Shown here: positions 3,591 through 24,336 of the stretch, piece after piece
How positions within the stretch are numbered: position 1 is the first letter of the stretch
How the letters are laid out: each line of letters opens with the position of its first letter
DNA from: a virus
IMG/VR virus record: IMGVR_UViG_3300047472_000142
Location: 1 to 53,799 of that record
Direction: 5' to 3' (one strand)
DNA length: 53,799 nucleotides
Translations under genes and position numbers: made by a program
The notes under the pieces: generated by a model
Seen by the model: the letters and a program-made list of their open reading frames with translations, nothing else
What the model was told of the DNA's origin: nothing
Database searches by the model: none

Positions 3591-3859
3591 GGCTCGGCCT
3601 CCTTGGCTTTTTGTTGCTCGGGCGCGAAGTCGCCGCGTAGCGGCATCAGCCACTTTTCCCAAACGATGGCCTTGTCCTCGCTTACCACCCATACAACCTC
3701 CCCTCCCTCCTGCTCGTAGACGCCAGGGTCCATCGGGTCCTTGCGATCCACTGGACTCACGCAGTGGCGGCTGATCAGCTCGACGCACGTACCGATTGCA
3801 GGCGGAAAGGTGTGATTGATCACTAAAGCCAGATCGCCCGGCTTGAATTGATTGCTCAT
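3581..3859 (-). CDS. hypothetical nin-region protein
   Basis: 92 aa, packed tightly with overlaps to both neighbours and co-oriented with them. Confidence 0.6.
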   Translation of the reverse strand: MSNQFKPGDLALVINHTFPPAIGTCVELISRHCVSPVDRKDPMDPGVYEQEGGEVVWVVSEDKAIVWEKWLMPLRGDFAPEQQKAKEAEPCL

Positions 3860-4852: not shown

Positions 4853-5211
4853 TGGCCGAACTCCTTGAGCAATTGGCGCGCCCCCATGACGGCGCCCTTA
4901 TCACCGGATGTTTTGCTGACATCGGAAAGGAAGCCGCGCAGGCGCTTGTTCTCAGCCTTGAGGTCTACGACCATCGAGAGCAGCTCCTCGCCATCGCTGT
5001 TCATGTCGGCGTCAAGTGCGCTGCCGATCGCGCCCATATCCATGCAGGCTGCGAGAAGCATTCGCTGGTGGCGCTCAAGATCCATGATCAGTTCGATAAC
5101 AACCTCTGGACTGGCCATTCTCTGGAATGCAACTTGGCAAGGGATATGGGGCGAGTTCGGATCATCCTTCGCAGCCTCGGCCAGCCGTTTGAGTTCGCTG
5201 TAATCGCTCAT
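4849..5211 (-). CDS. ead/Ea22-like protein (paralogous N-terminus)
   Basis: Internal start MSDYSELKRLAEAAKDDP. ATGA overlap with the micro-ORF upstream and with the gene downstream. Confidence 0.5.
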   Translation of the reverse strand: MSDYSELKRLAEAAKDDPNSPHIPCQVAFQRMASPEVVIELIMDLERHQRMLLAACMDMGAIGSALDADMNSDGEELLSMVVDLKAENKRLRGFLSDVSKTSGDKGAVMGARQLLKEFGQ

Positions 5212-13509: not shown

Positions 13510-13994
13510 GTTGCTGCGGCTTCATCGGAGAGGAGGTTGGATACCCGCGTTGCTGCCGGAATTGCGGCGGCGAAGGAAGCGAGCCCAATCCTGAGGGCCA
13601 CAAAAAACGCATGAAAACTGAAGCAATGGCCCGCTTCGATACCTGGCTCACCAACACTGGCATCGCGCACAAAAAGCACAACAATGGCTTTCATGTCGTG
13701 CTGACCCTGCCTGATGGCCGAATGATTGACTGCTGGCCCAGCACGAAGAAGTGGCAACTGCGCGGAGAGCGCATCAGCAGGGACGGAAAGGCGCTCCATG
13801 AGCTGGTGCTTCAGCAGTTGAGGGACCTCATATCAAAAGGCCCGCCGACTCTACGTTTGGCGCGGTTCGGCAATCGTTCTTCTCGGCACAGCCTTCGTCA
13901 TGCTGGCCAGCTCTTACTGCGCCCAGCTCACCCAATAACCCACCTTTTCAAACGCTGCGAGCATCGCGGCAAGGATTCCCCATGTCCGCAGTAA
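13506..13994 (+). CDS. Cys-rich hypothetical protein
   Basis: Start MSCCGFIGEEVGYPRCCRNCGG with an ATGA overlap. The C-terminal third is Arg/Leu/His-rich and may not be a real extension. Confidence 0.45.
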   Translation: MSCCGFIGEEVGYPRCCRNCGGEGSEPNPEGHKKRMKTEAMARFDTWLTNTGIAHKKHNNGFHVVLTLPDGRMIDCWPSTKKWQLRGERISRDGKALHELVLQQLRDLISKGPPTLRLARFGNRSSRHSLRHAGQLLLRPAHPITHLFKRCEHRGKDSPCPQ

Positions 13995-14800
13995 TGAAAC
14001 AGGTCGACCACGCGCCGGCCATGTCTGAGGCAGCACTTGTCGAGGTCTTGAGTGGCAGCCTGTACCCGGGCGCCGCGCATAACTCGGTGGTAATGGTCTT
14101 GGCCTACTGCCAGGCCGCACACCTGGACCCAATGCTGAAGCCGGTCCACATCGTTCCGGTCTACCAGAAAGGCCGCGGGATGGTCGATGTGGTCATGCCC
14201 GGGATTGGCCTCTACCGCATTCAGGCGGCGCGCACCGGGCAATACGCCGGCATCAGCGACCCTGAGTTCGGGCCATCGATCACCACGAAGCTGGCAGGCG
14301 TTGAAGTCACCTATCCAGAGTGGTGCCGGGTGACGGTAAAGCGCCAGATGTCGAACGGGCTTGTCGCCGAGTTCACCGCCAGCGAGCGCTGGCTGGAGAA
14401 CTACGCAACCTCCGGCAAAGACACCATCTCACCGAACGCCATGTGGAAGCGCCGGGCCTTTGCCCAGCTCGCCAAGTGCGCCGAGGCCCAGGCCCTGCGC
14501 AAGGCGTTCCCCGAAGTCGGATCAGCCCCTACCGCCGACGAAATGGAAGGCAAGTCCTTCGAAGAGCCGGCGCGCGACGTCACCCCACAGCAGCAAAAGT
14601 CGGAACCGGATCCTGTAGCGCTGCCGGCCTACTCGGACGACCTGCTCGCCGAAAACCTGGTCAAGTGGCGGCCGCTGATTGACGCCAACCGCACCAGCCC
14701 CGAGCACCTGATCGCCACCATCAGCAGCAAATACACGCTGACCGATGCGCAGAAAGAAAAGATCACCAACCTTAAAGCCCTCGATGGAGACGCAGCATGA
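13982..14800 (+). CDS. recT: RecT-family single-strand annealing protein
   Basis: AHLDPMLKPVHIVPV..GIGLYRIQAARTGQYAG..MWKRRAFAQLAKCAEAQALRKAFPE are typical RecT motifs. Confidence 0.8.
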   Translation: MSAVMKQVDHAPAMSEAALVEVLSGSLYPGAAHNSVVMVLAYCQAAHLDPMLKPVHIVPVYQKGRGMVDVVMPGIGLYRIQAARTGQYAGISDPEFGPSITTKLAGVEVTYPEWCRVTVKRQMSNGLVAEFTASERWLENYATSGKDTISPNAMWKRRAFAQLAKCAEAQALRKAFPEVGSAPTADEMEGKSFEEPARDVTPQQQKSEPDPVALPAYSDDLLAENLVKWRPLIDANRTSPEHLIATISSKYTLTDAQKEKITNLKALDGDAA

Positions 14801-16434
14801 AAATTCACAACGTAGCTCAAGGCTCCGCCGAGTGGCATGCCCTGCGCAGCCAGCACTTCACCGCCTCCGAGGCCCCGGCAATGATGGGCGCCTCGAAGTA
14901 CCAGACCCGCACCGATCTGCTGACGCTGAAGAAGACCGGCATTGCTCCGGAAGTCACGCAGTCACAGCAGTACATCTTCGACAAAGGTCACGCCACCGAA
15001 GCGATGGCCAGGCCGTTGGTTGAGTTGATGATCGGCGAAGAGCTGTACCCGGTCGTGGGCACCGAGGGCAACCTGCTCGCCTCGATGGACGGCGCGACGA
15101 TGCTCGGCGAGACGCTGTTCGAGCACAAGCTCTGGAACGAATCATTGGCCGCCCAGGTGCGCGCTGAAGACCTGGGCCCGCACTACTACTGGCAGCTTGA
15201 GCAGCAGCTGTTGGTGAGCGGCGCCGAGCGCGTGATCTTCGTTTGCTCTGACGGCACCGCAGAAAACTTCGTCAGCATGGAATATTGCCCGGTCGCCGGT
15301 CGCGCGGCTCAATTGATCGAAGGGTGGAAACAGTTCGAGGCGGATCTTGCCGGGCACGAAGTGGCGGACGCCCCGTCAATCATCGTCGGCAAGGCCCCGG
15401 ACGAGCTGCCAGCGCTGCGCATTGAGCTAACCGGCATGGTTACCGCCAGCAACCTGAAAGTGTTTGAGGAATCGGCTCTGGCGGTCATCGACTCAGTGAA
15501 AACCACGCTGACCACCGACCAGGACTTCGCGGACGCGAAAAAGGCGGTGAAGTGGTGCGGAGACGTTGAGGATGCGGTCACGGCGGCGAAGAAGCAGGCG
15601 CTGTCACAAACCCAGACCATCGACGAACTCTTCTGCTCGCTGGACCGCATCAGCAGGCACGCCCGGGAAACACGCCTGAAGGTCGACAAGCTGGTGAAGG
15701 CTCAGGAGCTGCTGGTGAAGACCAACATCAAGCAGAAGGCCGAGCAGGCACTGACTGATCACGTCGCAGCCATCAACAAGACCCTGGGCAAAGTGACCCT
15801 GCCGACGGTGACCGCCGACTTCGCGGGAGCCATGAAGAACAAGCGCACCATCGCCAGCCTGCAGGATGCCGTTGATACCGAACTGGCCCGGGCGAAGATC
15901 GACGCAAGTCAGATGGCCGACGGCATTCGCCTGAATCTCGAAAGCCTGCGCACCCTGGCTGCCGACCATGCCTTCCTGTTCGTCGACGCCCAGCAGTTGG
16001 TCATGAAAGCCAACGACGATCTGGTCGCGTTGATCAAGGTTCGGATCGCCGAGCACAAGAAGGACGAGGAAGCGAAAGCCGAGGCACAGCGCGAGCGCAT
16101 CCGGAAGGAAGAACTGCAGCGAATCGAGGACGAAGCCAAGGTTAAGCAGGTGGTCGAGCCTGTCGCTGAGCCTGCGCCAGTTGTGACGCCTGCCCCGATC
16201 AAGTCCGCACCGGTGGCACAGGCGGCTCCCAAGTCGGTTACCGCGCCAGCGCACCAGGCGGTCAGCCTTCAGGCCGAAGTATTCGACTTGCTGGATCTGG
16301 TCAAAGCCGTGGCCTATGGGCAGGCGCCTATCTCCGTGCTGACCGTCAACTGGGAAGCGATCGATGCGATGGTCGCGGATCAGGGCCAAGCCTTCAGCAT
16401 GGCCGGCGTGAGGCTGGTCAAGGCGGCAGCATGA
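14797..16434 (+). CDS. YqaJ-type exonuclease fused to a long coiled-coil C-terminal extension
   Basis: The N-terminus GSAEWHALRSQHFTASEAPAMMG..FEHKLW fits YqaJ. About 340 further residues are helical and Ala/Pro-rich. ATGA overlap with recT. Confidence 0.7.
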   Translation: MKIHNVAQGSAEWHALRSQHFTASEAPAMMGASKYQTRTDLLTLKKTGIAPEVTQSQQYIFDKGHATEAMARPLVELMIGEELYPVVGTEGNLLASMDGATMLGETLFEHKLWNESLAAQVRAEDLGPHYYWQLEQQLLVSGAERVIFVCSDGTAENFVSMEYCPVAGRAAQLIEGWKQFEADLAGHEVADAPSIIVGKAPDELPALRIELTGMVTASNLKVFEESALAVIDSVKTTLTTDQDFADAKKAVKWCGDVEDAVTAAKKQALSQTQTIDELFCSLDRISRHARETRLKVDKLVKAQELLVKTNIKQKAEQALTDHVAAINKTLGKVTLPTVTADFAGAMKNKRTIASLQDAVDTELARAKIDASQMADGIRLNLESLRTLAADHAFLFVDAQQLVMKANDDLVALIKVRIAEHKKDEEAKAEAQRERIRKEELQRIEDEAKVKQVVEPVAEPAPVVTPAPIKSAPVAQAAPKSVTAPAHQAVSLQAEVFDLLDLVKAVAYGQAPISVLTVNWEAIDAMVADQGQAFSMAGVRLVKAAA

Positions 16435-16773: not shown

Positions 16774-17130
16774 ATGGACCAAGCAATCGATGAAGCCGCA
16801 AAGCGGCAAAGTGGACTGGAGGCGGCGAAAGCTGCCTTCTTTGCATCTGGGGGTCAGGCACAGCTGATTCCAACAGGCCTCGGCAAGGACAGCCCTGGCG
16901 TCGATCAAATCCCGAAGCCGGCCTACGGCTATCGGAATATCGAGGCGCCAAAGAGCAAGCGCGGAAGACTCATAAGCGCCGACGAAAAAGCCGCCCTGGC
17001 CGCCCAGTTGATGGAGTGCAAAGCGGCCGGCATGACCCGGTACAAGGCCAGCAAGCACCTCGGCATCAGCGAAACACTATGCCGCCGGCTGATCGCCGAT
17101 TACTCACTCGACTTCCCGGCATCAGCCTGA
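16774..17130 (+). CDS. hypothetical protein with an HTH-like C-terminus
   Basis: Internal start MDQAIDEAAK. MTRYKASKHLGISETLCRRLI. Confidence 0.5.
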   Translation: MDQAIDEAAKRQSGLEAAKAAFFASGGQAQLIPTGLGKDSPGVDQIPKPAYGYRNIEAPKSKRGRLISADEKAALAAQLMECKAAGMTRYKASKHLGISETLCRRLIADYSLDFPASA

Positions 17131-17211
17131 TGCGCAGGATGGCACGCGTGCAACAACGCAAACGACAAGCTTGGCTGGCATTGCCGGCCAGCGGCATTGA
17201 AGAGGTATCCC

Positions 17212-17640
17212 ATGGCAGCCGCGCAGAAAGAACGATCGGCAAAGACTGCGGCGAGGCGAAAGACTCGCGGCGAGGAAGAGTTGCGAATGCATGCCATGGC
17301 CGGCACCCGGCAAGCGCTGGCTGAATTGATGGCCTGGCACGGCATCGAGGAACAGGGCGAGGCCATGACGCTGATGATTCATCATCTTCATGCGTTAGGG
17401 CCTCAAAAGTCCGCCCCGCTGCTTGCCCCGCCGCGACACGAAATCATAATTAGCGAAAACGTGTCGCGGAAACTGGACCAGTATCGATTCGGGTGCGAAC
17501 TCCGAGCTGTAAATGCATCGTCCGACGAAGATGAGGAAAGCGTTCAAGACGAATGCTATGCACCTATCGAATCACGAACCTCCAAAACAACTCTTCTCGC
17601 TTCGCGCTCGGACACAGTAAGTAGTTTCAGCAAATCATAA
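17212..17640 (+). CDS. hypothetical protein whose 3' end reads into an AT-rich island
   Basis: GAAGAGG lies 6 nt upstream of the ATG. The last 85 nt overlap the convergent gene 17556..18275. Confidence 0.5.
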   Translation: MAAAQKERSAKTAARRKTRGEEELRMHAMAGTRQALAELMAWHGIEEQGEAMTLMIHHLHALGPQKSAPLLAPPRHEIIISENVSRKLDQYRFGCELRAVNASSDEDEESVQDECYAPIESRTSKTTLLASRSDTVSSFSKS

Positions 17641-18275
17641 TCAACACCTTCCAGCTCGAACTCAACCCAGTCGAATACTCTGGTCGGCGCAAAACCCGGA
17701 TTAAATTTTTTCTGAATCTCTTTTATGGATGTTGAGCGAGAGAATACGACTCTTTCTTTTGAAATCGGCTGCCCGTTCATAGTATTTCCCTCGAACACAA
17801 CACTTTCACAGTTCTTGAATGTAAAGCCGGGGCCAATAGTTATGGTGTTTTCAACTGATTGCTTTCTCTGCTGAGTTCCTAGCCTGTCGTGCTTTCGGAA
17901 GTTTGTTGCGTTGCAGAATTTTACAAGCCAGTCGTCTCCGCACACGTGGGGCTGGATGCTTTCCACAATGGACAAAAGCCCTGGAGACTGCTTCGAAAGA
18001 CCAGGGAGATTCCTATTTAAACTTTGCAAAAATTCCTTCTCGTCTCTACCGTAAGGAAAATACACCTTTGTCTGTTTTTTAGAATAGGCCTGGTAAATTT
18101 CAACAGCGACGTACTCTAACGAGCTCCGAATGTGTTCAAGGGCTGACTTTGCTTCAACCCGTGCAACTTTAAGCACATCTTCGTCCGAGCGCGCTTCATC
18201 ATATTTACTTCGGATTAATTCGATTATCGATTTTGCCGAATCTAATAGCTCAGTTGCATCGTCAATTCTTTTCAT
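17556..18275 (-). CDS. orphan 239-aa protein on the opposite strand (moron, defence candidate)
   Basis: An AT-rich uninterrupted ORF antisense to the early-left operon. I recognised no motif. Confidence 0.6.
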   Translation of the reverse strand: MKRIDDATELLDSAKSIIELIRSKYDEARSDEDVLKVARVEAKSALEHIRSSLEYVAVEIYQAYSKKQTKVYFPYGRDEKEFLQSLNRNLPGLSKQSPGLLSIVESIQPHVCGDDWLVKFCNATNFRKHDRLGTQQRKQSVENTITIGPGFTFKNCESVVFEGNTMNGQPISKERVVFSRSTSIKEIQKKFNPGFAPTRVFDWVEFELEGVDYDLLKLLTVSEREARRVVLEVRDSIGA

Positions 18276-18375
18276 TCGTTAGGCACCTGATCCGGCTCCA
18301 TGCCGGGACGAACACAAATACCCCACTTCAACGAATCACGCCAGCCGGCGAGGCAATCGGCTGTCTGGAGCAGTT

Positions 18376-19239
18376 ATGAATCCCTATCTGATCACGGGTC
18401 CAGCCCAGATCGGCATCAGCGGTGGTCGCACCAGCGGGCACATGGTCTACAAAATTCTCGAAGCGCATGGCGGCGCACTACCGGAAGACGTGCACCTGTT
18501 CTTCCAGAACACCGGCAAGGAGCGCGAAGAAACGCTGATCTTCATCGATCAGATTGCCAAGCGCTGGAACGTGAACATCGTCTGGATGGAGTGGTGCCGC
18601 GTGTACGGTCAGCCGGATGATGCGCCCTGGTACAGGCTGGTGGACTTCGAAACCGCCAGCCGCAACGGCGAACCATTCACCATGATGCTCGAATATTACG
18701 CCGCTTACCGGAAGGCAGAGAAGAACCTGTCACCGGTTCTGCCCAACTTCTCCAACAACATGTGCACCGCGTATCTGAAGATCAAGATTGGCGAAAAGCA
18801 CATGCGCTCGCTGGGTTACGAGGAGTGGGACTGCGTGATCGGCATCCGCAAGGACGAGCCCGGACGCTACCATCGGATGATGGCCGCCAACGCAAAGGGC
18901 GGCACTCGCTGGGACAACGTCTGCCCCTCCTATACCGCAGGCATCACGAAGGAAGACGTCGCCGCATTCTGGCATGCGCAGGACTTTGACCTCGGCATGG
19001 ACTCCGACCTGGGCAACTGCGACCTCTGCTGGAAAAAAGGTGAGGACAAGCTGTTCAAGGCAATTCAGGCCGAGCCGCAACGGGTGATTTTCTGGTCTGG
19101 CGCCGAGGAGAGGTTCAATCAGGTCTTTCGCATGGACCGCCCGAAGTACTCTCACTTGGCCTGGTACGCGGAAAACTACAAGGGCCAGATGGATGCGTTT
19201 GGCTATTCCGAAGACATCGACTGCTTCTGCGGCGATTGA
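18376..19239 (+). CDS. PAPS-reductase-family PP-loop protein with C-terminal Cys clusters
   Basis: GISGGRTSG is a PP-loop-like motif. Cys pairs CDLCWKKG and DCFCGD. GGAG lies 6 nt upstream of the ATG. Confidence 0.65.
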   Translation: MNPYLITGPAQIGISGGRTSGHMVYKILEAHGGALPEDVHLFFQNTGKEREETLIFIDQIAKRWNVNIVWMEWCRVYGQPDDAPWYRLVDFETASRNGEPFTMMLEYYAAYRKAEKNLSPVLPNFSNNMCTAYLKIKIGEKHMRSLGYEEWDCVIGIRKDEPGRYHRMMAANAKGGTRWDNVCPSYTAGITKEDVAAFWHAQDFDLGMDSDLGNCDLCWKKGEDKLFKAIQAEPQRVIFWSGAEERFNQVFRMDRPKYSHLAWYAENYKGQMDAFGYSEDIDCFCGD

Positions 19240-19285
19240 AACCCCTCCCTATCCAATAAAACACGCCAGCCGGCGAGGATCTTCT

Positions 19286-21091
19286 ATGTCCACTCAACAG
19301 AAATTGCCCCAGTTCATCAACCGTCAGCCAAGCATGGGCCTGCCATTCGAAAAGGAACTGGTGGTGGACCTGTTCGCCGGTGGCGGCGGTGCAAGCACCG
19401 GGATAGCCCGGGCGTACCGGGAGCCGGATGTCGCGGTAAACCACAACCCGATCGCCCTGGCGGTTCACCGCGCCAACCACCCGCAGACGGCGCACTATGT
19501 CGCGGACGTGTTCGAGGTGGATCCGGTCCATGCCACCGGCGGCCAGCCGGTCGGCATTCTCTGGGCCTCGCCGGATTGCCGGCATCACAGCAAGGCCAAG
19601 GGCGGTGCACCGCGTGACCGCGGGGTGCGCGGGCTCGCCTGGGTAGTGGTTCGCTGGGCGCACACAACCCGGCCGCGCTTGATGTTCCTGGAGAACGTTG
19701 AAGAGTTCTGCGACTGGGGCCCGATCGACGAAGACGGCCAACCGATCAAGGCCGAGCGTGGACGAACCTTCAAGGCATTTATCGCCGCGCTCAGCACCGG
19801 CCTCGCCGCCGATCACCCGGACATGCCAGAGATCCTGCAATCGATAGGCGAATACGTGCCGGCGGAAAGCCTGGTGCGAGGCCTGGGCTACAACGTCGAA
19901 TGGCGGGAGCGCATCGCGGCCAACGCAGGCACCCCGACCATCCGCAAGCGCCTGTACCTGGTGGCCCGAAGTGACGGCAAGCCGATCGTTTGGCCAGCGC
20001 CAAAGCGCTACAAAGTGCCGACGGCGAAGCAGCAACCTTGGCGAACCGCCGCTGAATGCATCGACTGGAGCAACTTGGGCCGCACGATCTTCCGTGACAA
20101 GCCTATGGCCGTGAACACAATGCGCCGCGTGGCCAAGGGCTGCTGGCGGCATGTGCTGACCAGCGCGAAGCCGTTTATTGTCCCGATGCGCGGCACATCG
20201 GAAGCGCACACCAGCACTCACGGCATCGACGAAGCGCTGTCGACCATCAGCGCCGGCGGCACGCATCACGCATTGGTGCAGCCGGTAGCGGCGCCGTTCC
20301 TCACCGAGTGCGCCAATGGATCGTCGCAGCGCAACTTCGACGTGCAGGAGCCGTTGCGAACTCAGGTGGCCCAGGTAAAGGGTGGGCACTTTGCGATGGC
20401 CGCAGCCAACATGGTGACACTGCGGAAAGGTTCAGTCGGCGCCGACGTCGCGGGCCCGCTTGGCGTGGTCGCCACCGGCACCGGGCATCACGCGGTTTCC
20501 GCCGCATTTTTCGAACAGGCGAATGGGGGGTATTACAAAGGTGACGGCCGTTCGGCCTACGATCCCATCTCGACCATCTGCCAATCAGGCGCCAACCAGC
20601 GACTGGTGAGCGCCTACCTGGTGAAGTATTACGGCAACGAGAAGGACGGCATATCGCTCACCGAGCCGATGCACACCCTGCCGACGAAAGATCGAGTCGC
20701 GCTGGTCGAAGTTGTGCAGGTGCCGGACACCCTGACGCCTGAACAGTTGGAAGGTGCACGCCGCTGCGCTGCCTTCATGCGCGAGCATCTGCCTGAGTAT
20801 TTTAACGACCCGGCTGATCTGGTAATGGTCGGCGGTTATGTGCTGGTCGACATCACCCTGCGCATGCTGCAGCCGCCTGAGTTGAAGGCTGCCCAAGGCT
20901 TCGACAAGGACTACATCATCGATCGCGGGCTGTTCGTCGACCCCGTCACCGGCACCGAAGAATGGCGCGACATCAATAAGACGGACCAGGTCCGACTGAT
21001 CGGCAACAGCGTATGTCCAGATGAGGCCGAGGCGCTGGTCGCAGCCAATGCGACCGACATTATCGAGCTTTACCAGCGGTTAGCGGCCTGA
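19286..21091 (+). CDS. DNA (cytosine-5) methyltransferase, long form (601 aa)
   Basis: Motif I DLFAGGGG, motif IV SPDCRHHS, motif VI FLENV and motif X GNSVCP. Confidence 0.85.
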   Translation: MSTQQKLPQFINRQPSMGLPFEKELVVDLFAGGGGASTGIARAYREPDVAVNHNPIALAVHRANHPQTAHYVADVFEVDPVHATGGQPVGILWASPDCRHHSKAKGGAPRDRGVRGLAWVVVRWAHTTRPRLMFLENVEEFCDWGPIDEDGQPIKAERGRTFKAFIAALSTGLAADHPDMPEILQSIGEYVPAESLVRGLGYNVEWRERIAANAGTPTIRKRLYLVARSDGKPIVWPAPKRYKVPTAKQQPWRTAAECIDWSNLGRTIFRDKPMAVNTMRRVAKGCWRHVLTSAKPFIVPMRGTSEAHTSTHGIDEALSTISAGGTHHALVQPVAAPFLTECANGSSQRNFDVQEPLRTQVAQVKGGHFAMAAANMVTLRKGSVGADVAGPLGVVATGTGHHAVSAAFFEQANGGYYKGDGRSAYDPISTICQSGANQRLVSAYLVKYYGNEKDGISLTEPMHTLPTKDRVALVEVVQVPDTLTPEQLEGARRCAAFMREHLPEYFNDPADLVMVGGYVLVDITLRMLQPPELKAAQGFDKDYIIDRGLFVDPVTGTEEWRDINKTDQVRLIGNSVCPDEAEALVAANATDIIELYQRLAA

Positions 21092-21164
21092 CATCACGTA
21101 CGTATCCCGCGACGCCAACACTCAAGCCCCCCGAGAAGGCAGGCTCTTGAAATCTATGCAGCGC

Positions 21165-21401
21165 TCAAACTAAGCCGAACAATTTAGTGAGGTAAGCCGC
21201 GATGACCATTGCCACAATAGTCATTACCCAGCCGATGACTTTGAGGGCTTTACGCTTTTCAGTTGGATTTGAATTTTGTGCAACCTCGCAGTCTTCGGCA
21301 TCAAGCCTGTGCAGCCCCTTACCTTTAACGAGAGTTTCGGTGTCCGTTTTGCATCGCGTTAACTTAACGTCTTCGGAATCATCGATTTCAAACATAGCCA
21401 T
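21165..21401 (-). CDS. tail-anchored small membrane protein
   Basis: 78 aa with C-terminal TM segment VIGWVMTIVAMVIAAYLTKLFGLV. GGAGAG 7 nt upstream. AT-rich. Confidence 0.55.
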   Translation of the reverse strand: MAMFEIDDSEDVKLTRCKTDTETLVKGKGLHRLDAEDCEVAQNSNPTEKRKALKVIGWVMTIVAMVIAAYLTKLFGLV

Positions 21402-21636
21402 AAATAGCTCTCCGAATTTCCAACGCGAGAGTGGTCGGGCTAGGTCTATAAGAATGCGTTATATCCGTCAGCAAAAGACGCTTGGCTCTCGATCCTTTCA
21501 CAGCCACACGACCATCAACGCTGACATGCGATATCCGAACGTCCGTCGTGTCAGTGACGTCAAACGCGGAATCAAATCCTTCAAATCTACCACCCGTAAC
21601 GCTACATCCATCTGACAACTCGAAGGCTGAGAACAC
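21388..21636 (-). CDS. small soluble protein, first gene of a two-gene minus-strand cassette
   Basis: GTG start with AAGGAG 7 nt upstream. Its end overlaps the next gene by 14 nt. Confidence 0.55.
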   Translation of the reverse strand: MFSAFELSDGCSVTGGRFEGFDSAFDVTDTTDVRISHVSVDGRVAVKGSRAKRLLLTDITHSYRPSPTTLALEIRRAIYGYV

Positions 21637-21753
21637 TCTAGAACTCCTTATTGAAAAAGTAGCAAAACGATAGCACTCCCTTCCAGCGCCCTGTTAGCGC
21701 TGTTTTCGTAACTCCCCCTTCAAAGTCAGCCGCTATAGCGGCAAGGAACCCCT

Positions 21754-22248
21754 ATGCTCGATGCAAAAATCCACCACTCACTGAACGCGCTCACTGCACG
21801 CCAGATGGCCAAGCTGCTGGTGATGCATCACGGAATCAATGCTTTCGGCTACAAGTACGACAGCCTGCGGGATGCACCAAATGGCCTCGTTACCCTTGAA
21901 GATTTGGCGTCCATGTCCGGCGAGGATCTGGATCGGCTTTACGATGAGAGCTCGCACGATGATGCGGTGAACGAGGTGCGTTACAGCGCAGTGGACGCCC
22001 CTGGAGTTCCGTCTTGGTGCCACTACAGCTGGGAGCGCAACTACGAGGTCGATGTGAAGGCCTTCATCCTGCCAGACGGCCGTGCTCTCGCCTTTTGTGA
22101 GATGAGCGGCGGCGGCAAGCACGGCGAGCCAGACGCCTACCCTTGGGTTGAAGAGGCAAAATTCATCAAGGTCTCCGGCGTCGAAGAGCGCGTCATCAAG
22201 ACTTACAAGTTCGAGGATATTCCAGAGGCATCAGAGGTGACGCCATGA
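21754..22248 (+). CDS. hypothetical protein
   Basis: 164 aa with AAGGAA upstream. Confidence 0.6.
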   Translation: MLDAKIHHSLNALTARQMAKLLVMHHGINAFGYKYDSLRDAPNGLVTLEDLASMSGEDLDRLYDESSHDDAVNEVRYSAVDAPGVPSWCHYSWERNYEVDVKAFILPDGRALAFCEMSGGGKHGEPDAYPWVEEAKFIKVSGVEERVIKTYKFEDIPEASEVTP

Positions 22249-22867: not shown

Positions 22868-23287
22868 ATGTCTGCAGAACTGGCGCAGGCGCCCTCCCGG
22901 CCTCGGCGCGAAAGCATCCTTCCCCGTTTCATCCGTGCCGGTGCCGCTCCTATTTACTTGGGCATGTGCCGCGCCGAATTCGACAAAACCGTGCGCCCTT
23001 ATGTGAACGAGTTCCCCATCGGTGAGCGCGGTGTCGGCTTCGACCGTCAGGAGCTGGATGACTGGGCAACGGCGTATGTCGAGGCCAAAGCAATTGATAA
23101 AAAACGCGCCCCGGAGCAACAATTGCCCCGCAGCGAGCGCCTGAAAGGAGATAAATCATGGCGCGAAAATCGATCACAGGCCTCTCCGAGAGGAAAGGCA
23201 TCTGGCATATCGACAAGAAAATCAACGGAGAACGACTTTACGAAAGCACTGGAACTGGTGACCGGGAAGAAGCGGAACGCTACCTGA
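22868..23287 (+). CDS. xis: excisionase / AlpA-type HTH protein
   Basis: APIYLGMCRAEFDKTVRPYVNEFPIGERGVGFDRQELDDWA fits an excisionase-type winged helix. The frame stays open 130 nt into int. Confidence 0.6.
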   Translation: MSAELAQAPSRPRRESILPRFIRAGAAPIYLGMCRAEFDKTVRPYVNEFPIGERGVGFDRQELDDWATAYVEAKAIDKKRAPEQQLPRSERLKGDKSWRENRSQASPRGKASGISTRKSTENDFTKALELVTGKKRNAT

Positions 23288-24336
23288 TCTTCAGGCTGGA
23301 GCAGATCCGCCAGCAGAAGGTGTATGGCGTAAAGAAGGTCAGGATCTGGCGGGAGGCGGCGACTCGCTTCCTGCTGGAGTTCAAGGACCAGCCTTCAATC
23401 AAGTTATCGGCACACCACCTTTCTCAGCTGGACCCGTTCATTGGCGATATACCGCTCACCCACATTGATGACGAAGCCCTGGTGCCTTTCATCAAGGACA
23501 GGTTGGCGACTAAGAAGCTCGAGGATGGCAAGGTAAAAAAGGGTGTCAGCAACAGAACGGTGAACATCTCGATCGAGCGTGTGGTTCGGGTTTTGTCGTT
23601 GTGTGCCAGGAAGTGGCGAGACGATGAGCGCAGGCCGTGGCTGGATAGCGTGCCAATGCTCACGAAATTGGAAGAGAAGAAGTCGAGCCGCAAGCCGTAT
23701 CCGATGTCATGGCAGGAACAGTCGATTCTGTTTGCGGAATTGCCGGCTCACCTGCAAACGATGGCGCTGTTCAAGGTGAACACCGGCACCCGGGAGCAGG
23801 AGGTCTGCAAGTTGCGATGGGATTGGGAGATCTCGGTACCGGAGCTCGGCACCAGTGTTTTTCTGATACCTGCCGATTTTGGCGGGAGACATGAAAGGTC
23901 TGGGGTCAAGAACGGTGACGAGCGACTGGTCGTGCTCAACAGCGTGGCCAAGTCGATCATCGAGCAACAGCGAGGCCTGAGCAAGGAGTGGGTTTTCCCC
24001 TATAACGGCAGCGCGATGCACCGGATGAACGACTCAGCCTGGAAGAAGGCGCGGGTGAGAGCGGCGAAACTCTGGCAGGAGGAAAACCTTCGCCCCGCTC
24101 ACCCAGGTTATGCATCCATAAGGATCCACGACCTCAAACACACATTTGGCCGTCGGCTACGCGCAGCAGGCGTCACCGAGGAAGACCGAAAGGCACTTCT
24201 GGGCCACAAGAACGGCAGCATCACCAGTCACTACTCGGGCGCAGAGCTCGGGCATCTGATTGAAGCTGCAAACATGGTATCAGCAACCGATTCGCGTGGA
24301 CCGGTCCTGACAATCTTGAAGAGGAAGCAGGCGTGA
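23158..24336 (+). CDS. int: tyrosine integrase
   Basis: AAAGGAG upstream of the ATG. C-terminal HDLKHTFGRRLRAAGV and LLGHKNGSITSHYS supply the catalytic H/R/Y. Confidence 0.9.
   Translation: MARKSITGLSERKGIWHIDKKINGERLYESTGTGDREEAERYLIFRLEQIRQQKVYGVKKVRIWREAATRFLLEFKDQPSIKLSAHHLSQLDPFIGDIPLTHIDDEALVPFIKDRLATKKLEDGKVKKGVSNRTVNISIERVVRVLSLCARKWRDDERRPWLDSVPMLTKLEEKKSSRKPYPMSWQEQSILFAELPAHLQTMALFKVNTGTREQEVCKLRWDWEISVPELGTSVFLIPADFGGRHERSGVKNGDERLVVLNSVAKSIIEQQRGLSKEWVFPYNGSAMHRMNDSAWKKARVRAAKLWQEENLRPAHPGYASIRIHDLKHTFGRRLRAAGVTEEDRKALLGHKNGSITSHYSGAELGHLIEAANMVSATDSRGPVLTILKRKQA

Follow-up and report, generated by a model that had tools for sequence, protein, structure and literature searches.

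In the window analysed here, the whole 53,799-nt stretch of IMG/VR record IMGVR_UViG_3300047472_000142, the gene for a NinC-family PP-loop enzyme is followed on the same strand by the gene for a C5 DNA methyltransferase, and both are preceded by the same 17-nt sequence, CACGCCAGCCGGCGAGG (hereafter the 17-mer; see Table 1). The window is a complete virus record (53.8 kb) with direct terminal repeats, and the phage is of the temperate Pseudomonas type: its closest isolated relatives by megablast are the Pseudomonas phages Medea1 and phiAH14a, close protein homologues are found in Pseudomonas genomes of many species, and the relatives are Pseudomonas phages or prophages. Both genes belong to an operon of the early-left type, which runs on the plus strand from about position 11.6 kb to the integrase gene, and the locus that they occupy is a hypervariable accessory-gene array between the RecET genes and the integrase. 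We consider it probable (about 0.7) that the NinC-type gene and the methyltransferase gene are independent add-on cassettes, and that the leader containing the 17-mer is the site at which such cassettes are gained and lost.

Table 1. Positions of the leader copies, the genes of the array and the surrounding features in the window
Feature	Positions	Strand	Remarks
NinC-family PP-loop/probable Fe-S enzyme, PAPS (phosphoadenosine phosphosulfate)-reductase superfamily	18376-19239	+	287 aa
C5 DNA methyltransferase	19286-21091	+	601 aa; PF00145 1.8e-15, phrog_116 6.7e-87
Hairpin CCGGC-TCCAT-GCCGG	18292-18306	+	read from the sequence; present in most first-position leaders
Leader copy 1	18316-18353	+	G-poor tract AAATACCCCACTTCAACGAAT, then 17-mer CACGCCAGCCGGCGAGG
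Leader copy 2 (17-mer)	19262-19278	+	3' end GAGG; GAGGA, to 19279, is the methyltransferase Shine-Dalgarno sequence
NinC cassette	18354-19278	+	925 bp; own 5' untranslated region with Shine-Dalgarno sequence GGAG, coding sequence, 3' flank, second 17-mer
Small basic helical protein	17212-17640	+	conserved upstream of the leader in relatives; candidate regulator only
AT-rich moron	17556-18275	-	inserted ahead of the leader, behind the conserved small gene; phrog_13652, 2.3e-14
RecT	13982-14800	+	
RecE	14797-16434	+	
Integrase	23158-24336		end of the early-left type operon

The leader and the genes behind it

The 17-mer occurs exactly at 18337-18353 and 19262-19278, on the plus strand in both cases, and nowhere else in the genome. 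An exact match was obtained in none of 100 dinucleotide shuffles, and with three mismatches allowed, two or more matches arose in 10 of the 100; thus, it is the exactness of the repeat that counts. The initial annotation, made from the sequence of the window, had pointed to this repeat before both genes and to looser similarity further upstream, and both observations were borne out, the latter by an nhmmer profile of the leader that matched 18298-18354 (E = 6e-16) and 19225-19280 (E = 9e-8) and nothing below E = 1 in the rest of the genome. The conserved unit can be written as aataccccacttcaacgaaT-CACGCCAGCCGGCGAGG, about 38 nt with the 17-mer as its core, and the consensus of 162 instances is aataccccacttc.acgaaTCACGCCAGCCGGCGAGG. 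The GAGGA at the second copy lies 7 nt before the ATG of the methyltransferase. The hairpin upstream of the first copy has a few compensatory variants (for example, CCGAC/GTCGG and CCAGC/GCTGG), and in the simplest relatives it sits directly after the stop codon of a small upstream gene.

The exact 17-mer was found in at least 119 IMG/VR contigs and in 157 distinct sequence contexts, in 127 of which an open reading frame (ORF) was called downstream. We also fetched 80 IMG/VR loci by means of the same methyltransferase (75-97% identity). In about 40 of these the 17-mer, mostly exact, is located 24 nt before the methyltransferase ATG, and many have a second 17-mer at some distance upstream; without exception the copies lie on the coding strand, and a locus has from one to three of them in a single array. 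The sequences that follow diverge right after GAGG and fall into three main types: ATCCCCT-ATG, in which GAGGA acts as the Shine-Dalgarno sequence; CAGGCG-NNN-GCCTGGAG...ATG; and CAATCGGCTGTCTGGAG...ATG, seen only with the NinC type of the window. Across 33 distinct leader-methyltransferase junctions, the columns of the 17-mer were 98% identical, compared with 82% for third and 96% for second codon positions, the figure of 98% being somewhat inflated because the junctions were picked with at most three mismatches in the 17-mer.

When the genes after the leader were clustered, C5-methyltransferases were counted 65 times and PAPS-reductase-like genes, in three or four divergent subfamilies, at least 26 times. 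The same position is also taken by N6_N4 and D12 adenine methyltransferases, an HNH endonuclease, DUF2786/DUF7168, the NA37 nucleoid protein, DUF551 and several families of small unannotated proteins. Since the downstream genes are so diverse, the leader marks an array of mostly DNA-modification or DNA-directed accessory genes rather than this particular pair.

Proposed cassette exchange and possible regulation at the leader

When the segment 18354-19278 was removed in silico, the remaining sequence showed 262/266 identity, with one gap block, to the continuous leader-methyltransferase junction of one relative (L013), and the same deletion aligned without gaps to several other relatives. Because the deletion restores a junction of the L013 type, the NinC cassette is an insertion flanked by 17-nt direct repeats. 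A recombination scar was one of the explanations that the initial annotation had offered for the shared leader, and this 925-bp indel, bounded precisely by both 17-mers, speaks directly for it. As the comparison with the relatives shows, the phage has the ancestral leader-methyltransferase junction, into which the NinC cassette was inserted with duplication of the 17-mer.

Other junctions lie in the same place. Homology to Medea1, by megablast, sets in exactly at 19262, and the methyltransferase leader of Medea1 is a diverged copy, tCACGCCAccCCGGCGAGGAtgaactATG. In this phage (L003), a diverged leader is found before both the adenine and the cytosine methyltransferase (3600-3692 and 4990-5030), and Medea1 is therefore a possible experimental system. 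A second common methyltransferase leader has only GGCGAGGATCCCCT in common. In another relative, L019, this alternative leader is abutted by the start of a divergent gene on the minus strand, 47 nt ahead of the methyltransferase ATG. This gene (L019:3444-3953, minus strand) encodes 169 aa, hydrophobic near the N-terminus, and its start region is the conserved upstream part of the alternative leader, which is the same in about 12 loci. Since the start of the L019-type gene forms that upstream part, a second class of insertions lands inside the 17-mer region. The in silico deletion, the start of the Medea1 match and the L019 junctions together show that mosaic junctions cluster in and around the 17-mer.

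In T4-type phages, conserved motifs called promoter-early stem-loops (PeSLs) flank non-essential genes and mediate their shuffling (Arbiol et al. 2010, PMC2839356; Comeau et al. 2014, PMC4122927). PeSLs are the closest described counterpart of the leader: in both cases stem-loop motifs lie in hyperplastic regions, and the insertion, loss and replacement of genes among close relatives is accounted for by recombination from one copy to another. The array has what cassettes of the PeSL type demand, that is, variable genes flanked by the leader and indels bounded by its copies. However, a PeSL combines a functional terminator with a strong sigma-70 promoter and is present in many copies per genome, whereas the leader has no recognisable promoter or terminator, includes a ribosome-binding site, and belongs to one array of a temperate Pseudomonas lineage.

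We propose that each plus-strand cassette of the array would be headed by the conserved leader, composed of the G-poor tract and then the invariant 17-mer, whose 3' end may act as a ribosome-binding site. Cassettes would be gained, lost and swapped through recombination at this short conserved sequence, and the RecT and RecE proteins of the phage itself could catalyse the reaction.

An alternative possibility is that the 17-mer is above all an operator, or an RNA motif in the 5' untranslated region, to which a dedicated phage regulator binds so as to coordinate all of the cassettes; the regulator would possibly be the small basic protein encoded upstream, similar to Aca proteins, and the shuffling of cassettes would be a by-product. 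A common regulatory site had also been suggested in the initial annotation, and this part has merit. Conservation of the 17-mer equals that of second codon positions, also where ribosomes bind elsewhere: before NinC the ribosome-binding site is GGAG, 5 nt from the ATG, and thus translation initiation does not explain the conservation there. The 17-mer also holds an imperfect 12-bp palindrome (CGCCAG/CCGGCG, read from the sequence), which is repeated before the cassettes, and homologues of the small protein are encoded upstream of a same-strand 17-mer in 93 of 106 tblastn hits. Because published work describes regulators whose motifs are repeated ahead of a number of anti-defence genes, phage PAPS reductases of anti-defence operons among them (PMC13551039), we keep the regulator site as a rival of, or a complement to, cassette exchange, one that we regard as unlikely but worth retaining.

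The searches that could have strengthened this alternative were empty. A consensus scan of 18276-18375 and 19240-19285 revealed no sigma-70 promoter or terminator site, the hairpin at 18292-18306 is not followed by a T-run, and no sigma-54, extracytoplasmic function (ECF)/PvdS, leaderless-mRNA or reverse-strand promoter could be fitted to the leader by eye. An Rfam scan of 17000-22000 at E <= 1 gave two sub-threshold chance matches, neither of them in the leader. Folds of single sequences differ in their pairings among the three 3' leader types, and for 42 first-position leaders RNAalifold returned an invariant 4-bp stem alone with zero covarying pairs. As for a structure of the leader as such, the folding results are no evidence for or against it; for an RNA motif, the shortness of the stem, the lack of covariation and the downstream pairing partners that vary by leader type are unfavourable. 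The small protein, too, is without a Pfam match or a significant fold match. In Aca-type operons a repeated inverted-repeat operator overlaps the promoter and has a cognate helix-turn-helix or ribbon-helix-helix regulator, whereas for the 12-bp palindrome of the window no promoter was found. A more specific version, in which the leader is the putative binding site (DNA or 5' untranslated RNA) of a dedicated regulator within an Aca-like circuit, with the small basic protein as the best candidate, seems to us somewhat less probable still. If it were true, new anti-restriction cassettes that recombine behind the leader would join the control circuit automatically, and the leader could be relied on to point out new counter-defence genes among the small ORFs behind it. 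Two other possible roles were looked for: there is no complementary match of 11 nt or more in the genome that would serve as an antisense partner of the 17-mer, and NaeI/CCGG sites are not avoided (GCCGGC, 61 observed and 31.5 expected).

The small protein of the window shows 61% identity over 88 aa to L073:3606-3932. In relatives it is about 108 aa long, basic and helical, with the pattern MAK..ERSAK.A.KR...E.ELR..., and is encoded directly upstream of the leader in more than 90 loci. In the window the homology extends to about residue 93, the point at which the moron of the opposite strand begins, and thus the C-terminus of the protein has been replaced. No match to Pfam was found. The AlphaFold2 (AF2) model is all-helical (predicted local distance difference test score (pLDDT), 82; predicted TM-score (pTM), 0.43) and retrieved nothing at E <= 0.001 with Foldseek; a profile search of the PDB yielded ribosomal S20 alone, which is not significant (E = 0.06), and the ESM Atlas a weak lead to RepB-RCR_reg. 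A ribbon-helix-helix fold, considered for this protein, is no more than an impression. The moron had no Pfam or PADLOC match and has a homologue in only one of the 80 related loci. On the minus strand of 18276-18306, the ATG in the hairpin loop opens a 9-codon ORF, MEPDQVPNE, whose TGA overlaps the moron ATG at 18275, possibly by chance.

Elsewhere in the operon, there are a protein with a weak helix-turn-helix motif and three further ORFs, two with PHROG matches of unassigned function and one without a match. The gene at 21754-22248 corresponds to phrog_25120 and is preceded by GCTATAGCGGCAAGGAACCCCTATG (21727-21756), which resembles an alternative methyltransferase leader of related phages, ...CTATACCGGCGAGGATCCCCTATG; the start region of this gene is the third member of a leader-like family of initiation regions in the genome.

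The methyltransferase and the NinC-type enzyme

According to the initial annotation, the two genes may form a DNA modification module that goes beyond simple methylation and serves as anti-restriction. In its strictest form, this would be an obligate pathway in which the NinC-like enzyme and the methyltransferase together hypermodify DNA beyond 5-methylcytosine (5mC), for example on the methylated base, with the 17-mer co-regulating the two genes. Both this phage and L005 have the two genes side by side and in the same orientation, natural fusions of a NinC-like domain with a Dam methylase exist, and in one database protein (P0011) a NinC-like C-terminal stretch is joined to a C5-methylase domain. 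However, the co-occurrence of the two families, proposed as a check at the time, does not suit a dedicated pair. A PAPS-like gene is present in only 6 of the 80 loci seeded with the methyltransferase, and it often occurs without this methyltransferase; 65 of these loci lack a PAPS-like gene as well as both of the N6-methyltransferase types tested, and 9 add an N6-methyltransferase. Among the loci seeded with the leader, 9 have both genes, and 16 have the PAPS-like gene without any of the three tested methyltransferase types in the fetched stretch. In several of the co-occurring cases another gene separates the two, and this may be an unrelated gene on the opposite strand. Moreover, the same leader heads N6-methyltransferases, HNH and other genes, and lambda NinC has no neighbouring methyltransferase. 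Nothing in the sequence indicates a modification beyond 5mC, and we therefore judge the obligate pathway improbable. What survives of the proposal is an anti-restriction role, which is plausible for both as accessory genes and not for a joint module. The NinC-type enzyme and the methyltransferase would work independently.

The second of the two is, as first described, a Dcm-type enzyme of 601 aa with motifs I (DLFAGGGG, at about residue 30), IV (SPDC, C98), VI (ENV, 136) and X (GNSV, 573); motif IV is a variant with Asp between Pro and Cys. PF00145 covers only the N-terminal part, and phrog_116 spans residues 8-596. The ATG at 19286 is the start used in 74 relatives, and a longer ORF from 19193 overlaps the upstream gene. 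The enzyme had been called unusually long, but 601 aa is ordinary in its family: the best 120 matches are mostly of this length. Of 8000 scored candidates, 5831 proteins match the central region at E <= 0.001, and those of its best 120 matches that are named by source are from Pseudomonas. Because the family is very common in Pseudomonas prophages, the length is not exceptional.

Between motif VIII (at about residue 222) and motif IX, about six tandem units of about 36 aa are arranged over residues ~268-490. They are anchored on P-[LIM]-x-[TV] and were recognised by eye (for example, EALSTISAGGTHHALV, EPLRTQVAQVKGGHFAMA, GPLGVVATGTGHHAVS and DPISTICQSGANQRLVS); when units were compared with each other by hhalign, four pairs, one of them offset, gave 69% (the best, E = 4e-5), 42%, 24% and 12%, and the others less than 3%. 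Lengths among the relatives, including L012 and L079, are 600/601, 604, 629, 634, 637 and 670 aa. The length steps correspond to one unit of 36 aa or to 69 aa, and in the 637-aa variant that was examined the extra 36 aa come after residue 373, within the region of tandem modules. This suggests that whole recognition-like modules are gained and lost. In the C5-methyltransferases of the Bacillus phages SPR, phi3T and rho11s, one catalytic core is combined with contiguous target-recognising modules of about 40 aa between motifs VIII and IX, and the number of modules of these multispecific enzymes varies between relatives. The likeness is one of architecture, the modules of the window enzyme being deduced from weak internal repeats; the extra length of the enzyme would then consist of ~36-aa modules that resemble target-recognition modules. 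Because its architecture matches that of the Bacillus phage enzymes, the methyltransferase is likely to be a protective methylase with several targets: it would probably methylate several sequence contexts and so protect the phage DNA from several restriction systems.

The PP-loop and the C-terminal cysteine pairs noticed in the first gene are GISGGRTSG at residues 13-21 and NCDLCW (C215 and C218) with DCFCGD (C283 and C285), and the assignment to DndC/PAPS-reductase-like enzymes stands, with the enzyme placed in the NinC/DndC/SspD branch. In 34 homologues, no variation is seen at S15, G16, G17, R18, S20, C218, C283 or C285, and conservation at C130 and C215 is 90% or more; the five conserved cysteines and the intact PP-loop fit an ATP-dependent enzyme with an ATP-pyrophosphatase fold and, probably, an Fe-S cluster. 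The protein matched phrog_424 (1.4e-37) and, in tblastn, lambda NinC (27.9% identity, 94% of the query, E = 1e-16), and a profile of the 34 sequences matched lambda NinC at 99.85% in hhalign (E = 1.4e-30, 32% identity over 199 columns). SGGRTS, GIRxDEP (GIR(A/K)DEP) and LGNCxxC align with lambda NinC and are invariant or nearly so in the 34 homologues. The two proteins are thus alike in their motifs and length (287 and 290 aa, the lambda gene being ORF-290 of the nin region, phrog_424), and both are encoded by an accessory gene of a temperate lambdoid-type phage. Their positions differ: lambda NinC is in the nin region, between the replication genes and Q and beside recombination genes, whereas the gene of the window is in the early-left operon before the integrase, bounded by the leader and beside a methyltransferase. 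The AF2 model of the PP-loop enzyme has a mean pLDDT of 91.6; its top Foldseek matches were CysH, followed by the Fe-S sulfurtransferases TtuA, LarE and NcsA, with TM-scores of only 0.3-0.5, and phmmer against the PDB sequences gave no meaningful match. A literature search under the name NinC returned almost only unrelated chemistry and neuroscience papers.

Among the relatives of the enzyme are DndC, SspD and BrxP, which insert sulfur and with which it shares the PAPS-reductase superfamily, the PP-loop and conserved cysteines. However, the match to the PADLOC SspD model (2.6e-8) is partial, extending from position 4 to 153 of the 277 in the profile, and there was no hit to the models of DndC or BrxP. 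Neither DndE (PF08870) nor a cysteine desulfurase (PF00266) was detected in the complete phage genome, where DndD-type ATPases were not searched for; thus, any phosphorothioation would need host partners or a different chemistry.

With a PAPS::Dam gene of a Vibrio crassostreae phage and one gene next to it, transferred as a block, a phage became able to infect a host carrying Dnd (Piel et al. 2022; bioRxiv 10.1101/2021.05.05.442762). Against the N-terminal domain of the 479-aa Vibrio PAPS::Dam protein, hhalign gave 99.65% for the window enzyme, with 29% identity over 203 columns. The two cases are similar in the homologous PP-loop domain, in the association with a phage DNA methyltransferase, and in that the region varies between near-identical phages. 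In Vibrio, the domain forms one protein with a Dam (N6-adenine) methylase and was moved with a second gene, whereas the window protein is free-standing beside a C5 methylase; the mechanism was not resolved there, and the phage of the window has no known host Dnd system. By homology, the likeliest role of the NinC-type enzyme would be to counter immunity that depends on phosphorothioates or similar modifications. For a counter-defence role linked to sulfur-based or other DNA modification, as judged from the sequence, we would put the chance at even or slightly below.

We rejected as very improbable the explanation that the phage uses the NinC-like gene as an auxiliary metabolic gene whose product, a true PAPS reductase (CysH), boosts host sulfate assimilation in infection: PHROG and many database annotations do call the family phosphoadenosine phosphosulfate reductase, and CysH structures are the best Foldseek matches, but this likeness is modest (TM 0.38-0.47, 11-16% identity), the score for Pfam PAPS_reduct (PF01507) is 20.9 bits, below the curated 22.5, and the gene is located in an array of DNA-modification genes. 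The catalytic cysteine of CysH sits in a C-terminal ECGLH-type motif, whereas the window protein ends in ...SEDIDCFCGD, has no ECG anywhere, and carries the intact SGGRTS PP-loop and five conserved cysteines as in ATP-dependent Fe-S sulfurtransferases; because of the sub-threshold score and this C-terminus, it is not a convincing CysH. Four NinC-like database proteins of 589-655 aa (P0005, P0008, P0009 and P0010) have a LAGLIDADG/Hom_end homing-endonuclease domain downstream of the PAPS-reductase domain and look intein-like or homing-endonuclease-fused, and in P0007 a NinC-like domain is fused to a radical-SAM domain.

Probable independent cassettes in temperate Pseudomonas phages

Several points weigh against the independent-cassette reading and the functions assigned to the two cassettes. 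Recombination at the 17-mer was deduced from the positions of junctions and not observed, and 17 bases are few for a RecT-type reaction, even if the leader as a whole extends over about 38-60 nt. The near-perfect conservation of the 17-mer before NinC suggests an additional sequence-specific function. The multispecificity of the methyltransferase rests on modest repeat scores (at best 69% in hhalign) and on the analogy with the Bacillus phage enzymes, and the anti-Dnd precedent is a PAPS::Dam fusion tested with an adjacent gene, at only 28-29% identity. For lambda NinC itself, we know of no assigned function.

The elements of the array are individually of known kinds, namely, NinC-type counter-defence genes, orphan phage methylases and PeSL-like shuffling motifs. 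As independent cassettes behind a common leader, they offer a sequence-defined case of modular exchange in temperate phages at a short and easily searched site. The genes behind the leader in Pseudomonas phages and prophages, including the families of small unannotated proteins, are candidate anti-restriction or counter-defence genes. NinC is thereby placed among DNA-modification cassettes and connected with anti-Dnd activity, in which a clearly homologous domain has been implicated, and NinC-like genes should not be annotated as auxiliary genes of sulfur metabolism. Because Medea1 has a diverged leader and the same methyltransferase, the question of what NinC does could be addressed in a tractable system.

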